Part shown: in pieces, positions 479 to 37,097 of the stretch
How positions within the stretch are numbered: position 1 is the first letter of the stretch
Layout: every line of letters starts with the position of its first letter
Source of the DNA: Escherichia coli
Lineage (GTDB): Bacteria > Pseudomonadota > Gammaproteobacteria > Enterobacterales > Enterobacteriaceae
NCBI RefSeq assembly: GCF_046105845.1
Contig: NZ_CP151004.1
Length of the DNA: 64,000 nt
Strand: one strand, 5' to 3'
Made by a program: the position numbers and the translations under genes
The notes under the pieces: model-generated
The model's database searches: none
Seen by the model: the letters and a program-made list of their open reading frames with translations, nothing else
Told to the model about the DNA's origin: nothing

Positions 479-1147
479 ATGATTCGCTTTGAACATGTCA
501 GCAAGGCTTATCTCGGTGGGAGACAGGCGCTGCAGGGCGTTACGTTCCATATGCAGCCGGGTGAGATGGCGTTTCTGACCGGTCATTCCGGCGCAGGGAA
601 AAGTACCCTCCTGAAGCTGATCTGTGGGATTGAGCGGCCCAGCGCCGGGAAAATCTGGTTTAGCGGCCATGACATCACGCGTCTGAAAAACCGTGAAGTT
701 CCGTTTCTGCGCCGCCAGATTGGCATGATTTTCCAGGATCACCATCTCCTGATGGACCGTACTGTCTACGATAATGTGGCGATCCCGCTGATTATCGCCG
801 GTGCCAGCGGTGACGATATTCGCCGCCGTGTATCCGCGGCACTGGATAAAGTCGGGCTACTGGACAAAGCGAAGAACTTCCCTATTCAGCTTTCGGGCGG
901 TGAACAACAACGTGTTGGCATTGCCCGCGCGGTGGTGAACAAGCCCGCGGTACTGCTGGCGGACGAACCGACTGGTAACCTGGACGACGCGTTGTCGGAA
1001 GGCATTTTACGTCTGTTTGAAGAGTTTAACCGCGTTGGGGTAACCGTATTGATGGCAACGCACGACATCAACCTGATCTCGCGGCGTTCCTATCGCATGC
1101 TCACCCTGAGCGATGGTCACTTGCATGGAGGCGTGGGCCATGAATAA
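479..1147 (+). CDS. ftsE: Cell division ABC transporter ATP-binding protein FtsE
   Basis: 222 aa. Walker [13 protein letters not shown] signature LSGGEQQR, Walker B LLADEP. Starts 3 nt after the ftsY stop. Confidence 0.96.
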
Positions 1148-2198
1148 GCGCGATGCAATCAATCATATTCGGCAGTTTGGCGGGCGTCTGGATCGCTTCC
1201 GTAAATCGGTCGGCGGCTCAGGCGACGGCGGTCGTAACGCGCCAAAACGCGCGAAATCCTCGCCAAAACCGGTAAATCGCAAAACCAACGTTTTCAACGA
1301 ACAGGTGCGCTATGCCTTCCACGGCGCATTGCAAGATCTGAAAAGTAAACCGTTCGCCACGTTTTTAACGGTGATGGTTATCGCCATCTCTCTGACGCTG
1401 CCCAGCGTCTGTTATATGGTGTACAAAAACGTTAACCAGGCGGCGACGCAATATTATCCGTCACCGCAAATCACTGTTTATCTGCAAAAAACGCTGGACG
1501 ATGACGCTGCTGCGGGCGTGGTGGCACAGTTGCAGGCCGAGCAAGGCGTGGAGAAAGTGAATTATCTTTCTCGTGAAGACGCACTGGGTGAGTTCCGTAA
1601 CTGGTCTGGTTTTGGTGGTGCGCTGGATATGCTGGAAGAAAACCCGCTTCCGGCAGTGGCGGTGGTGATCCCGAAACTCGATTTTCAGGGGACGGAATCA
1701 CTCAATACGCTGCGTGATCGTATCACGCAGATTAACGGCGTTGACGAAGTGCGGATGGATGACAGCTGGTTTGCCCGTCTGGCGGCGTTGACCGGGCTGG
1801 TCGGGCGCGTTTCGGCGATGATCGGCGTGTTGATGGTGGCGGCAGTGTTCCTCGTCATCGGCAACAGTGTGCGTCTGAGCATCTTTGCTCGCCGTGACTC
1901 CATTAACGTGCAGAAACTGATTGGTGCGACGGATGGTTTCATCCTGCGCCCGTTCCTGTACGGAGGCGCATTGCTGGGATTTTCTGGCGCATTGCTGTCA
2001 TTAATTTTGTCAGAAATTCTGGTACTGCGTTTGTCATCGGCGGTTGCGGAAGTGGCACAGGTTTTCGGAACGAAGTTCGATATCAATGGCTTATCGTTCG
2101 ATGAATGCCTGCTATTGCTGCTGGTATGCTCGATGATTGGCTGGGTGGCAGCGTGGCTTGCCACGGTACAACATTTACGCCACTTTACGCCGGAATAA
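1140..2198 (+). CDS. ftsX: Cell division permease-like protein FtsX
   Basis: Start chosen at the internal ATG (MNKRDAINH...) giving 352 aa. Overlaps the ftsE stop by 8 nt, suggesting translational coupling. Four hydrophobic segments toward the C-terminus. Confidence 0.93.
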
Positions 2199-2322
2199 TA
2201 AAATCGTGTTATACTCTTTCCCTGCAATGGGTTCCGTAGCAGGGAAAGAGACCCCGTTGTCTCTTCCCGGTATTTCATCTCTATGTCACATTTTGTGCGT
2301 AATTTATTCACAGCGTTGCATT

Positions 2323-2349
2323 GAACTTGTGGATAAAATCACGGTCTGA
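2323..2349 (+). promoter_or_regulatory. Sigma-E type promoter upstream of rpoH (P3-like): GAACTT-N16-TCTGA
   Basis: GAACTT at 2323-2328 and TCTGA at 2345-2349 with a 16-nt spacer match the sigma-E consensus. rpoH is a known sigma-E regulon member. Confidence 0.6.
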
Positions 2350-2442
2350 TAAAACAGTGAATGATAACCTCGTTGCTCTTAAGCTCTGGCACAGTTGTTG
2401 CTACCACTGAAGCGCCAGAAGATATCGATTGAGAGGATTTGA

Positions 2443-3297
2443 ATGACTGACAAAATGCAAAGTTTAGCTTTAGCCCCAGTTGGCAACCTGGATTCCTACA
2501 TCCGGGCAGCTAACGCGTGGCCGATGTTGTCGGCTGACGAGGAGCGGGCGCTGGCTGAAAAGCTGCATTACCATGGCGATCTGGAAGCAGCTAAAACGCT
2601 GATCCTGTCTCACCTGCGGTTTGTTGTTCATATTGCTCGTAATTATGCGGGCTATGGCCTGCCACAGGCGGATTTGATTCAGGAAGGTAACATCGGCCTG
2701 ATGAAAGCAGTGCGCCGTTTCAACCCGGAAGTGGGTGTGCGCCTGGTCTCCTTCGCCGTCCACTGGATCAAAGCAGAGATCCACGAATACGTTCTGCGTA
2801 ACTGGCGTATCGTCAAAGTTGCGACCACCAAAGCGCAGCGCAAACTGTTCTTCAACCTGCGTAAAACCAAGCAGCGTCTGGGCTGGTTTAATCAGGATGA
2901 AGTTGAAATGGTGGCCCGTGAACTGGGCGTAACCAGCAAAGACGTACGTGAGATGGAGTCGCGTATGGCGGCACAGGACATGACCTTTGACCTGTCTTCC
3001 GACGACGATTCCGACAGCCAGCCGATGGCTCCGGTGCTCTATCTGCAGGATAAATCATCTAACTTTGCTGACGGCATCGAAGATGATAACTGGGAAGAGC
3101 AGGCGGCAAACCGTCTGACCGACGCGATGCAAGGTCTGGACGAGCGTAGCCAGGATATCATCCGCGCGCGCTGGCTGGACGAAGACAACAAGTCCACGTT
3201 GCAGGAACTGGCTGACCGTTACGGTGTTTCCGCTGAGCGTGTGCGCCAGCTGGAAAAGAACGCGATGAAAAAACTTCGCGCTGCCATTGAAGCGTAA
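2443..3297 (+). CDS. rpoH: RNA polymerase heat-shock sigma factor sigma-32
   Basis: 284 aa. Sigma-70 family region 2 ([14 protein letters not shown]) and region 4 HTH. The whole protein reads as sigma-32. Confidence 0.97.
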
Positions 3298-3318
3298 TTT
3301 CCGCTACTCAGCAGAGAA

Positions 3319-3350
3319 CCCTGGATGAGAATCCGGGGTTTTTGTTTTTT
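3319..3350 (+). terminator. Rho-independent terminator of rpoH
   Basis: Stem ccctggat / atccgggg (one G-U pair) with a gaga loop, followed by TTTTTGTTTTTT. Confidence 0.8.
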
Positions 3351-3568
3351 GGACCTCTGCAATAATCAGTTTCCCCCTCCGGCAAAACGCCAATCCCCAC
3401 GCAGATTGTTAATAAACTGTCAAAATAGCTATTCCAATATCATAAAAATGGGGTATGTTTTAGCAGAGTATGCTGCTAAAGCACGGGTAGTCATGCATAA
3501 AACGAAATAAAGTGCTGAATCACAACACCACAACACACGTAATAACCAGAAGAATGGGGATTCTCAGG

Positions 3569-5255: not shown

Positions 5256-5678
5256 GGGGAACCCGTGTAAATCACAAAAGTGGAACCAGTGTAGCGAAAT
5301 AATTTAATCGGAGGCTTTCTCTTTTTTATTTCTTTTGGCAGGTGATTAATTTTTTTTCAGCAATAATTACAAAGTTAAAACATTAGAGAATGAAAAATAC
5401 CCAGCATAATCCCCTGAATGGTAGTGAATTATTCCGCTCTTTTTGCCGTTATTTTATGCTGACAACGGCACTTTTTTCTGTTTATCTATCAATAAATTCA
5501 GAATATTATCTGTTCTTAATCGACTGAAAAATAGGGATTTTAATCGCTATTATCACAAAATACTGCGCTAAACCCTTAATCAGACAGGCAAAAACAGTGC
5601 AGTATAAAAAAAGAACAGTCTGATTTGTTAACACATAAAAACAAAGCAACACAACATCACGAATGGGGATTTTTGACT

Positions 5679-18242: not shown

Positions 18243-18273
18243 TTAAGCCCTCTCCCGATAGGCGAGGGCTTAA
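18243..18273. terminator. Hairpin between convergent ggt and yhhY (probable bidirectional terminator)
   Basis: aagccctc ... gagggctt inverted repeat within a 60-bp convergent intergenic gap. Confidence 0.5.
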
Positions 18274-21198: not shown

Positions 21199-22194
21199 AT
21201 GAAAAAGAAAAGACCCGTACTTCAGGATGTGGCTGACCGTGTAGGCGTGACCAAAATGACGGTCAGCCGCTTTTTGCGTAACCCGGAGCAGGTTTCCGTC
21301 GCTCTACGCGGCAAGATTGCCGCCGCTCTTGATGAACTGGGTTATATTCCCAATCGCGCACCCGATATCCTCTCTAACGCCACCAGCCGGGCGATTGGCG
21401 TCCTGTTACCTTCTCTCACCAACCAGGTTTTTGCGGAAGTATTACGCGGAATCGAAAGCGTCACCGACGCGCACGGTTATCAGACCATGCTGGCCCACTA
21501 CGGTTATAAACCGGAAATGGAGCAAGAACGCCTCGAATCCATGCTCTCCTGGAATATCGACGGCCTGATCCTCACTGAACGTACGCACACGCCGCGCACC
21601 TTAAAGATGATTGAAGTGGCGGGGATTCCGGTGGTGGAGTTGATGGACAGCAAGTCGCCGTGCCTCGATATTGCCGTCGGTTTTGATAACTTTGAAGCGG
21701 CACGCCAGATGACCACCGCCATTATTGCTCGCGGGCATCGCCACATTGCCTATCTCGGCGCACGTCTCGACGAACGTACTATCATCAAACAGAAGGGATA
21801 CGAACAGGCGATGCTGGATGCAGGCTTGGTGCCGTATAGCGTGATGGTTGAGCAATCTTCTTCTTACTCTTCCGGTATTGAACTGATTCGCCAGGCGAGG
21901 CGGGAATATCCGCAGCTGGATGGCGTGTTCTGTACTAATGATGACCTGGCGGTCGGCGCGGCGTTTGAATGTCAGCGTCTGGGGTTAAAAGTTCCTGACG
22001 ATATGGCGATTGCCGGTTTCCACGGTCATGACATTGGTCAGGTGATGGAACCACGGTTGGCGAGCGTACTGACGCCGCGTGAGCGGATGGGCAGTATTGG
22101 CGCTGAACGCCTGCTGGCGCGTATTCGTGGCGAATCTGTGACACCGAAAATGTTAGATTTAGGTTTCACCTTGTCACCGGGCGGATCTATTTAA
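21199..22194 (+). CDS. gntR: Gluconate utilisation repressor GntR (LacI family)
   Basis: 331 aa. N-terminal HTH LQDVADRVGVTKMTVSRFL. Upstream of gntK-gntU. Confidence 0.94.
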   Translation: MKKKRPVLQDVADRVGVTKMTVSRFLRNPEQVSVALRGKIAAALDELGYIPNRAPDILSNATSRAIGVLLPSLTNQVFAEVLRGIESVTDAHGYQTMLAHYGYKPEMEQERLESMLSWNIDGLILTERTHTPRTLKMIEVAGIPVVELMDSKSPCLDIAVGFDNFEAARQMTTAIIARGHRHIAYLGARLDERTIIKQKGYEQAMLDAGLVPYSVMVEQSSSYSSGIELIRQARREYPQLDGVFCTNDDLAVGAAFECQRLGLKVPDDMAIAGFHGHDIGQVMEPRLASVLTPRERMGSIGAERLLARIRGESVTPKMLDLGFTLSPGGSI

Positions 22195-28608: not shown

Positions 28609-30578
28609 CACAACTCGCCATTGGCAAACCCGCTCCCCTCGGCGCGCATTACGACGGTCAGGGCGTCAACTTCACACTTTTCTCCGCTCATGCCGAGCGG
28701 GTAGAGCTGTCTGTCTTTGACGCCAATGGCCAGGAACATCGCTATGACTTGCCAGGGAACAGTGGCGACATTTGGCACGGTTATCTGCCGGATGCGCGCC
28801 CGGGTTTGCGTTATGGTTATCGCGTTCATGGCCCCTGGCAACCCGCCGAGGGGCATCGCTTTAACCCGGCGAAGTTGTTGATTGATCCTTGCGCGCGGCA
28901 AATTGACGGGGAATTTAAAGATAACCCGCTGCTGCACGCCGGTCATAATGAACCTGACTATCGCGACAACGCCGCCATTGCGCCGAAATGCGTAGTGGTG
29001 GTTGATCACTATGACTGGGAGGATGATGCTCCGCCGCGCACGCCGTGGGGCAGTACCATCATTTATGAAGCCCATGTCAAAGGATTAACGTACCTGCACC
29101 CGGAGATCCCGGTCGAGATCCGTGGCACTTATAAAGCCCTGGGGCATCCGGTGATGATCAACTATTTGAAACAGTTGGGCATTACCGCGCTGGAACTGCT
29201 GCCGGTGGCGCAGTTTGCCAGCGAACCACGCCTGCAACGTATGGGTCTAAGTAACTACTGGGGTTATAACCCGGTGGCGATGTTTGCGCTGCATCCGGCG
29301 TATGCCTGCTCCCCAGAAACGGCGCTGGATGAGTTTCGCGATGCAATCAAAGCACTGCATAAAGCGGGTATCGAAGTCATTCTTGATATCGTGCTCAACC
29401 ATAGTGCGGAACTGGACCTCGACGGTCCGTTATTCTCTCTGCGTGGGATCGACAACCGTAGCTATTATTGGATAAGAGAAGACGGCGATTATCACAACTG
29501 GACCGGTTGTGGCAACACGCTCAATTTGAGTCATCCGGCGGTGGTGGATTATGCCAGCGCCTGCCTGCGTTATTGGGTAGAAACCTGCCACGTCGATGGT
29601 TTCCGCTTTGATCTGGCGGCAGTCATGGGCCGTACGCCAGAGTTTCGTCAGGATGCGCCGTTGTTTACCGCTATCCAGAACTGCCCGGTGCTCTCGCAGG
29701 TGAAGTTAATTGCTGAACCGTGGGATATTGCTCCTGGTGGTTATCAGGTGGGAAATTTCCCGCCGCTGTTTGCCGAGTGGAACGATCATTTCCGCGATGC
29801 TGCCCGTCGTTTCTGGCTTCATTATGATTTGCCTCTGGGGGCGTTTGCCGGGCGTTTTGCTGCCTCCAGCGATGTTTTTAAACGTAATGGTCGTCTGCCG
29901 AGTGCCGCGATTAATCTCGTCACCGCGCATGACGGTTTTACGCTTCGCGACTGCGTTTGCTTCAACCATAAACATAATGAAGCAAACGGAGAAGAAAATC
30001 GCGACGGGACCAACAACAATTACAGTAACAATCATGGTAAAGAAGGGTTAGGCGGTACTCTTGACTTGGTTGAACGGCGTCGCGACAGCATTCACGCCCT
30101 GTTAACAACGTTGTTACTCTCCCAGGGTACGCCGATGTTACTGGCCGGTGACGAACATGGTCACAGCCAGCATGGCAATAACAATGCCTACTGTCAGGAT
30201 AACCAATTAACCTGGTTGGACTGGTCGCAGGCAAGCAGTGGTTTAACCGCATTTACCGCCGCGTTAATCCATCTGCGCAAGCGCATTCCCGCTTTGGTGG
30301 AGAATCGCTGGTGGGAAGAAGGCGACGGCAATGTCCGTTGGCTAAATCGATATGCTCAACCTTTAAGCACGGATGAGTGGCAAAACGGGCCGAAACAGCT
30401 GCAAATTCTGCTCTCGGATCGCTTTTTGATCGCAATTAACGCCACGCTTGAGGTAACAGAGATTGTTTTACCTGCTGGGGAGTGGCACGCCATTCCCCCA
30501 TTCGCTGGAGAGGATAACCCAGTGATTACGGCTGTCTGGCAGGGACCTGCACACGGATTGTGTGTGTTCCAGAGATGA
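28605..30578 (+). CDS. glgX: Glycogen debranching enzyme GlgX
   Basis: 657 aa. ATGA overlap with glgB. GH13 motifs GFRFDLA and EPWD. Confidence 0.95.
30550..30564 (+). promoter_or_regulatory. CsrA-binding hairpin in the glgC leader (GGA in loop)
   Basis: cacacGGAttgtgtg hairpin 30 nt upstream of the glgC Shine-Dalgarno AAGGAG. Matches the characterised CsrA site of the glgCAP leader. Confidence 0.75.
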
Positions 30579-35856: not shown

Positions 35857-36272
35857 TATCAGATAAACGATATGTCATGACAATTTACAGACAGCATCGA
35901 TATATAATTCATATTTATTAATTTTTAATAATGATTCTCATCTGAGTATGTATCATACAATAAGCATTATAAATAACCAATAAATTATTTATTATATTTA
36001 TATATTGCCCCACTCTTCAGTTATCCTGTCTAAAATAAATCTCTTTGTTTTCAAATGACTGTATTTTTATATAAAGTCAATCATTGCGAGCATGGATTCT
36101 TTTAGTTATATTACCAAGCAGCTCATATAATATTTTCAAGCCATTCTATCTCTTATTTTTTCTGTGGTTAACTACACCAGCTTTATTCATTTAAATAATT
36201 TGACTTATTAAAGCTGAATGTAAAAATAATCGCCAATATTGCTTGGATTTTTTAACAAAAGGAAAGGTATAA

Positions 36273-36977
36273 ATGAAATTCAATCTATCTAATTTATCAG
36301 CAGTTTTACTCGCATCAGGTATGCTGATGTCAACTGCGGTAACCGCTGCGCCAGGCGATGCATCACAATTTGGTGGTGCGGATACAGACTGGAGCACCGT
36401 TGATTATCCAAAACTCACCGATATGGATAACAACACCGATGCGATGGGCGGAAACATCCGCTTTACTGGTCGTGTGGTTAAAGCGACGTGTAAGGTTGCT
36501 ACAGAATCGAAACAGATTGAAGTGGTACTGCCAGTCGTACCTTCTAACGCTTTCACGGGCATTGATACCGAAGCAACGGGCGCCAGTAACCAGACTGACT
36601 TCAACATTAAACTGACTGATTGTAGCAATACGGACAGTCAAAACATTGAATTTCGTTTTACTGGCGTAGCAGACGGTGCCAACCAGACGCTTGCCAATGA
36701 AGTGGAAGGAGCTACTGATGCTGATGGTACTGGCGAAGCGGGAGCTACAGGTGTAGGGATTCGTATTTATTCTAAAAACACGACAACTGATGGCCTGATT
36801 AAACTGAACACACAAACTCCCCAGGGGAGTAGTTCTTCAGCAGCCTACGTGATTCCTGGCGATGCTGCCACTCATGATTTTACTGCGGCATTTACCGCGG
36901 GCTATGCTCAGAACGGTAGTACCGTTGCACCAGGTCTGGTGAAATCGACGGCAAGTTTCGTCGTGCTGTACGAATAA
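36273..36977 (+). CDS. Fimbrial major subunit candidate (type-1/FimA-like pilin family, atypically long)
   Basis: 234 aa with signal peptide. Conserved pilin Cys pair (ATCKV ... LTDCSN). C-terminal beta-strand ASFVVLYE typical of chaperone-usher subunits. Strong SD AAGGAAAGG. First gene of the fimbrial island. Confidence 0.85.
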   Translation: MKFNLSNLSAVLLASGMLMSTAVTAAPGDASQFGGADTDWSTVDYPKLTDMDNNTDAMGGNIRFTGRVVKATCKVATESKQIEVVLPVVPSNAFTGIDTEATGASNQTDFNIKLTDCSNTDSQNIEFRFTGVADGANQTLANEVEGATDADGTGEAGATGVGIRIYSKNTTTDGLIKLNTQTPQGSSSSAAYVIPGDAATHDFTAAFTAGYAQNGSTVAPGLVKSTASFVVLYE

Positions 36978-36989
36978 TTACAGCAAGAT

Positions 36990-37023
36990 AATTTCAGGTT
37001 ACAGTTACTTGTAACCTGAAATT
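36990..37023 (+). terminator. Perfect 14-bp stem-loop after the major subunit gene (probable intra-operon attenuator)
   Basis: aatttcaggttaca-gttact-tgtaacctgaaatt, 12 nt after the stop codon. No strong U-tract follows, so partial termination or a stability element is more likely than a full terminator. Confidence 0.6.
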
Positions 37024-37097
37024 AATATTACATGTTTATTTGTAATAAATAGACATGCATCAGTAATTACAATTAATTTCATCTACAAGGATGCAGT

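Follow-up and report, generated by a model that had tools for sequence, protein, structure and literature searches.

The spacer between ftsX and rpoH in Escherichia coli carries a perfect inverted repeat, and the question that this locus raises is which molecule the repeat serves: the RNA that arrives from ftsYEX, the RNA that starts upstream of rpoH, or the DNA itself as a binding site for a protein. The window, by which we mean the whole stretch of 64,000 nucleotides that was analysed, shows the E. coli gene order ftsY'-ftsE-ftsX-rpoH-livJ, with its 5' edge falling inside ftsY. The hairpin and sigma-E region occurs in single copy in 5423-5425 of 5426 complete E. coli genomes; a 401-nt query over it matches 5425 of them, under ftsX and rpoH annotations. 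Positions 2150-2460 align without gaps to K-12 MG1655 and differ at five bases, none of them in the hairpin or the sigma-E motif; the alignment provides the coordinate conversion used throughout (window position = 3603226 - K-12 coordinate). As a check on this conversion, the published rpoH 3' end at 3599880 falls at position 3346, at the canonical rpoH terminator with its hairpin and T-run (3314-3343). At 2312-2314, directly 5' of TTGCATT, the strain reads GCG and K-12 reads AGC, in a stretch that we take to be the CytR/CRP region; the remaining differences are G/T at 2192 and T/G at 2204.

The locus is the same as, and near-identical to, the classical rpoH promoter region of K-12, which we take to comprise P1 (sigma-70, distal), P3 (sigma-E), P4, P5, P6, DnaA boxes and CRP/CytR sites. 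P3, a start resembling the distal P1 and two DnaA boxes are shared, and for the promoters nothing differs here. The spacer is well studied, its promoters are already known and the hairpin adds little that is new. The features that enter the argument are collected in Table 1.

Table 1. Features of the ftsX-rpoH region, in window positions, with K-12 coordinates in brackets where a transcript end was mapped.
Feature	Position	Strand	Remark
ftsE	479-1147		
ftsX	ORF 1113-2198	+	annotated as ftsX in K-12 and other E. coli genomes
ftsX stop codon TAA	2196-2198	+	
ftsX-rpoH spacer			244 nt
Extended -10 element, TGTTATACT	2207-2215	+	taken as rpoH P1 (sigma-70); overlaps the start of the stem by two bases
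Hairpin 1, 5' arm, CTCTTTCCCTGC	2214-2225	+	
Mapped rpoH transcription start	2223 (3601003)	+	inside the 5' arm, 220 nt before ATG, 8 nt after the -10 hexamer
Hairpin 1, loop	2226-2238	+	13 nt; contains a 4-bp inner helix in E. coli; sequence and length free to vary among genera
Hairpin 1, 3' arm, GCAGGGAAAGAG	2239-2250	+	
Hairpin 2 (predicted), GGAAAGAGAC / GTCTCTTCCC	2243-2252 / 2259-2268	+	90% complementary; re-uses part of the hairpin 1 3' arm
Pyrimidine-rich, G-poor tract, candidate rut region	2249-2290	+	C 33%, U 36%, G 14%; by analogy with PMC6061677
Mapped ftsY-ftsE-ftsX transcript 3' end	2256 (3600970)	+	6-8 nt after the stem; 'novelTTS' (PMC6131387)
DnaA-box-like 9-mer, TTATTCACA	2304-2312	+	1 mismatch
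P3 -35 element, GAACTT	2323-2328	+	
Perfect DnaA box, TTATCCACA	2328-2336	-	inside the P3 spacer
P3 -10 element, TCTGA, within CGGTCTGAT	2345-2349	+	
rpoH	ATG 2443; stop 3295-3297		

A conserved stem-loop downstream of ftsX

The inverted repeat that the first-pass annotation had described as ten base pairs long is present and longer than described, with 12 perfect base pairs closing a loop of 13 nt (hairpin 1). Its placement immediately after the ftsX stop is approximate, as 15 nt separate the stop codon from the stem and hold the extended -10 element. Folding as RNA, which the same annotation had proposed as a check, gives -24.5 kcal/mol against -8.2 +/- 2.3 kcal/mol for dinucleotide shuffles (z = -6.96), with none of 200 shuffles folding as well. 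The stem is followed by AGACCCCGTTG and by no U-tract, as had correctly been stated, and a simple terminator scan does not flag it; a scan of 1900-3500 with the Rfam 15 covariance models returned no match at E <= 1. A repeat element of the REP/BIME type was also considered for hairpin 1 and rejected, since the hairpin is single copy, with a median of one place per genome.

Relatives were reached by two routes. The scan of genome contigs with RpoH returned mostly distant Gammaproteobacteria and two usable loci, from Citrobacter werkmanii (L017) and an Enterobacter sp. (L002), where the arms are the same as in E. coli and the loops wholly different; in farther Enterobacterales (L003-L007) the hairpin is absent or the neighbourhood is a different one. 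The scan of metagenome DNA used the conserved P3/DnaA-box pattern with the E. coli base excluded at one position and yielded 120 stretches with 88 distinct spacers, a set that carries no taxon labels and reaches only relatives keeping that pattern. Among these, all 67 distinct enterobacterial P1-to-P3 segments fold the hairpin, at -14 to -27 kcal/mol and with differing loops, and a U-tract follows the stem neither in E. coli nor in any of the 67 variants. In E. coli itself, 5423 genomes keep the hairpin segment at 95% identity or more; the copies that depart furthest have either one base deleted from the T-run of the 5' arm or a substitution in the loop.

RNAalifold recovers the same helix from 44 distinct sequences, with 10 pairs and a covariation term of only -0.09. 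In a 13-pair structure 88% of cells are paired, compared with 39-62% when the partner is slid, and changes on both sides occur at 6 pairs against 2.0 +/- 0.8 in shuffles, a value reached by none of 500. Compensatory changes include CTCTCCC/GGGAGAG (L176) and CCTTCCC/GGGAAG (L002, L194), and in two variants (L082, L108) the outermost pair passes from C-G to A-U together with a change of the -10 hexamer from TATACT to TATAAT. The distance from arm to arm ranges from about 12 to 19 nt. Because the stems are almost invariant across genera and the covariation term is so small, while the loop varies freely, the conservation lies mainly at the level of sequence. Such invariance is unusual for a terminator, whose stems usually drift, and something beyond RNA structure constrains the arms. 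We attribute it to a double duty in which the 5' arm would serve as the discriminator and start region of P1 and the 3' arm would be kept complementary to it.

Transcripts ending and starting at the hairpin

SMRT-Cappable-seq of K-12, which captures 5'-triphosphate ends and reads whole transcripts, places the start of the ftsYEX transcript at 3604315, with 633 reads there and 146 ending at 3600970, a few nucleotides past the stem; 43 further reads stop no more than 50 bp beyond that point, and 69 run past it, by a median of 70 bp (PMC6131387). As shares of the classified ftsYEX reads, about 57% end at 2256 and 27% read through, and the same source lists ftsE-ftsX-rpoH as an extension of the rpoH operon (PMC6131387). 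The earlier suggestion that the hairpin insulates rpoH from ftsYEX read-through can accordingly be kept in part: the mapped 3' end 6-8 nt past the stem speaks for it, whereas the 27% of reads that pass and the listed ftsE-ftsX-rpoH transcripts speak against a tight barrier. Insulation is real but leaky, and some read-through reaches rpoH.

Term-seq under three growth conditions reports no curated 3' end within K-12 3600900-3601099, its sole ends in the spacer being 3600802 and 3600804 (PMC7815308, Adams 2021). Since Term-seq calls none there, the ftsYEX 3' end derives from one data set. The supplements of Kim 2012 and Ettwiller 2016 contain no usable rows for the ftsX-rpoH locus.

The same segment also starts a transcript. 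Supplementary Data 1 of the SMRT-Cappable-seq study lists an rpoH transcript that runs from 3601003 to the rpoH terminator (PMC6131387). We take this start, at position 2223 and inside the 5' arm, to be that of P1, as fits the distal promoter, and the possibility raised beforehand that mapped rpoH starts would disagree with these positions did not materialise. In each of the 88 distinct enterobacterial variants the extended -10 motif TGnTATA[AC]T directly adjoins the stem, and a consensus scan for a -35 hexamer at 16-18 nt from the P1 -10 found no usable one. Extended -10 promoters usually do without a -35 element, so that its absence is compatible with membership in that class.

Relative to the P1 start, hairpin 1 spans about -9 to +28. 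RNA derived from ftsX contains the whole hairpin, whereas RNA initiated at P1 holds only the last three bases (UGC) of the 5' arm; because the start lies inside that arm, P1 RNA cannot form hairpin 1 and escapes its effect. One 45-bp segment thus both ends the ftsYEX operon and starts rpoH.

Upstream of these elements, the last ftsX codons contain on the minus strand a perfect tandem repeat GTAAA-N5-GTAAA (GTAAAGTGGCGTAAA, 2174-2188), which covers about -49 to -35 relative to the P1 start and is the sole match in the window (0.05 expected). We assume this repeat to be of the CpxR-box type.

The sigma-E promoter and the remainder of the spacer

The sigma-E promoter that the first-pass annotation had recognised is the classical rpoH P3. 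The motif GAACTT-N16-TCTGA occupies 2323-2349, 75 nt after position 2248, and has no second match in the window, where chance would give 0.05. The sigma-E consensus has GGAACTTTT at -35 and (T/C)GGTCAAAA at -10 (PMC1312014); the window has TGAACTTGT ... CGGTCTGAT, including the consensus context CGGTC. From the usual distance of 6-7 nt the start would lie at about 2355-2356. P3 has been described as 'exclusively transcribed by sigma-E' (PMC1851643), P3::lacZ is the standard reporter (PMC1312014), and in SELEX with RpoE holoenzyme the ftsX-rpoH spacer gives a peak of 37.4, the highest intensity among its neighbours in the table (PMC5493296); PMC6941012 gives no P3 sequence. P3 works independently of hairpin 1.

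The P3 motif is also found upstream of rpoH in the Citrobacter and Enterobacter genomes, and in the 120 metagenome stretches, although these were retrieved with the motif itself and form a circular set. A sigma-E-type motif has been reported for Shewanella rpoH (PMC4336711), and in Shewanella xiamenensis (L016) we observe GAACTTTTGTTCACTTGCAATGTCTAT about 260-290 nt before rpoH, matching the listed RpoE-dependent rpoH promoter of Shewanella oneidensis (PMC4336711). Control of rpoH by sigma-E thus reaches far outside the enterics, which the hairpin does not.

The two DnaA-type sites of Table 1 are presumably the two DnaA boxes reported for the rpoH region. The window holds an excess of DnaA-box-like 9-mers that is clustered in a fimbrial region and is probably an effect of base composition. 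This accessory fimbrial cluster (fimbrial protein and chaperone, 36100-37100) is present in 784 of 5426 E. coli genomes, and contains four such 9-mers within 320 bp (36163-36481) as well as a 15-bp perfect palindrome (36989-37024). Short-loop perfect inverted repeats reaching 10 bp or more occur at five further places, 18243-18273, 21231-21268, 29954-29988, 59514-59536 and 60469-60501.

Closer to rpoH, a second published start at K-12 3600847 corresponds to position 2379, 64 nt before the ATG (PMC6131387), and presumably belongs to a proximal sigma-70 promoter, P4 or P5. The rpoH 5' UTR contains a 6-bp inverted repeat, TCTGGC/GCCAGA (2385-2390 / 2414-2419), with no U-tract, after which lie the very strong Term-seq 3' ends at K-12 3600804 and 3600802 (positions 2422 and 2424), 19-21 nt before the ATG (PMC7815308). 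The authors of that study place these ends in the thermometer-regulated leader and say nothing further of them (PMC7815308).

How the ftsYEX 3' end may arise

Our preferred reading, to which we assign a probability of roughly 0.6, is that hairpin 1 belongs to the ftsYEX RNA as a leaky 3' stem-loop lacking a U-tract and sharing its DNA with the core of P1, and that it is probably of the Rho-dependent, exonuclease-trimmed kind. RNA polymerase arriving from ftsX would transcribe both arms and the 12-bp hairpin would form; Rho would load on the pyrimidine-rich, G-poor tract right after the stem and terminate some tens of nucleotides downstream; exonucleases would then trim the RNA in the 3'-to-5' direction until stopped by the hairpin. 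By this route most transcripts would acquire their 3' end at 2256; about a quarter pass the barrier, and some of them reach rpoH. We favour the Rho-dependent route because a U-tract is absent in E. coli and in every relative.

Rho-dependent 3' ends have been described as marked by a stable stem-loop that lacks a U-tract and has a rut site close behind it (PMC6061677, Dar & Sorek 2018). With these hairpin 1 shares a stable stem-loop, the lack of a U-rich tail and a precise 3' end just downstream, the latter taken from PMC6131387 and absent in Term-seq; the C-rich and G-poor tract that follows is a candidate counterpart of their rut sites. It differs from them in its unusually conserved stem and in its overlap with a promoter core, and Rho dependence and trimming are putative here. 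The composition of the tract (C 33%, G 14%) holds over the 42 nt after the stem, but C/G is only 1.54 over 78 nt, and complementarity to the purine-rich arm also explains the tract. We count the median 70-bp extension of the passing reads in support of diffuse termination downstream. A bicyclomycin-sensitive 'Rho termination region' has been called in the spacer at 3600870, with a score of 1.92 (below 2), p = 1e-11 and windows of 800 nt (PMC7815308). That coordinate is position 2356 and coincides with the expected P3 start; because of this coincidence, the signal may partly reflect drug-induced P3 rather than read-through of a Rho site.

Release by the stem-loop alone, at about 2256 and without Rho or trimming, would account for a 3' end 6-8 nt past a very stable stem, which is the usual distance for an intrinsic terminator, and would agree with the modest Rho score in the spacer. 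As in canonical intrinsic terminators such as that of rpoH, an operon closes with a stable, G+C-containing hairpin, and the 3' end lies a few nucleotides past its stem; in contrast to them, hairpin 1 has no U-tract and only partial efficiency. A U-tract is needed for efficient intrinsic release, and its absence from E. coli and all 67 variants, together with passing reads that end a median of 70 bp later and fit a diffuse zone better than a single site, leads us to regard this reading as unlikely. We consider rather improbable a further proposal, that the partner of the 3' arm (GCAGGGAAAG) is the 5' arm in ftsX RNA and a downstream pyrimidine-rich copy in P1 RNA, the second hairpin being an attenuator or a stabiliser of the 5' end. 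The copy reads CTCTTCCC in E. coli and CTTTTCCTGC in Klebsiella-like variants, and in nearly all 67 variants the P1 leader, folded at minimum energy, pairs its 3' arm with the downstream segment even though the intervening sequence differs. Hairpin 2 is the predicted fold of the 3' arm in P1-initiated RNA, and its statistical support is weak: the E. coli P1 leader (2223-2275) folds at z = -2.55, yet when the downstream 40 nt are shuffled with dinucleotides preserved, no more than 8 of 27 lineage representatives show significant pairing (p < 0.05; E. coli has p = 0.24), and the invariance of the 3' arm means that compensatory change cannot be scored. Some lineages (Klebsiella- or Enterobacter-like) carry a run of U5-U7 after the second hairpin, and several (L085, L097, L099, L170) have closing CCG...CGG pairs followed directly by UUUUU; E. 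coli- and Citrobacter-like lineages, however, lack the run, and in L085 and L099 the second hairpin with its U-run is not flagged by the simple terminator scan. In E. coli, moreover, Term-seq shows no 3' end in the P1 leader before 3600804 (PMC7815308), and full-length transcripts from P1 to the rpoH terminator exist (PMC6131387). Such a switch, if true, would be chosen by the promoter, without ligand or ribosome, and its second hairpin would act on P1 transcripts only. It would share with the trp and his attenuators one strand segment with two possible partners and differ from them in that the choice would follow the promoter, and in having no leader peptide and weak statistics. The weak shuffle test (8 of 27) is the reason why we treat it as a rival.

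The remaining readings place the repeat outside RNA function. As the binding site of a dimeric regulator of P1, which the first-pass annotation had offered as an option, the palindrome would explain arms that are nearly invariant across genera, as expected of a protein contact surface, and its position over the P1 start would suit a repressor. The claim nevertheless finds no support: an arm spacing of about 12-19 nt with unrelated loops alters both distance and helical phase and ill suits a dimeric DNA-binding protein, the rare arm changes are compensatory and preserve pairing rather than a fixed motif, and we know of no regulator with the motif of these arms, nor did the literature consulted name one. 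An operator is very unlikely. A chance palindrome without function could be argued from the number of such repeats in the window, where perfect inverted repeats of at least 10 bp with loops of 3-20 nt give 15 sliding hits at 7 places. Shuffles preserving dinucleotides, however, give 1.55 +/- 1.5 hits under the same settings, about ten times fewer, and chance is contradicted by conservation, the helix being kept in every relative examined for pairing, with variable loops and compensatory changes. With an RNA 3' end also mapped just past the stem, we give chance next to no credence.

We thus return to hairpin 1 as the 3' stem-loop of the ftsYEX RNA. It has the stable, G+C-containing stem-loop of a canonical intrinsic terminator and not the U-tract. 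As a 3' structure it is of a kind already known, and it stands out only in sharing bases with a promoter core. The hairpin offers a structural explanation for a 3' end listed only as 'novel TTS' in the 2018 data set. Because the level of the heat-shock sigma factor is set through rpoH, whatever controls the amount of transcription entering it from the ftsYEX cell-division operon bears on the basal supply of sigma-32. The arrangement is economical, in that a terminal hairpin and a promoter core use the same bases and the transcripts of the promoter escape the hairpin by starting inside it, and this sharing of bases offers a reason for the frozen stem in Escherichia, Citrobacter, Enterobacter and related metagenome variants.
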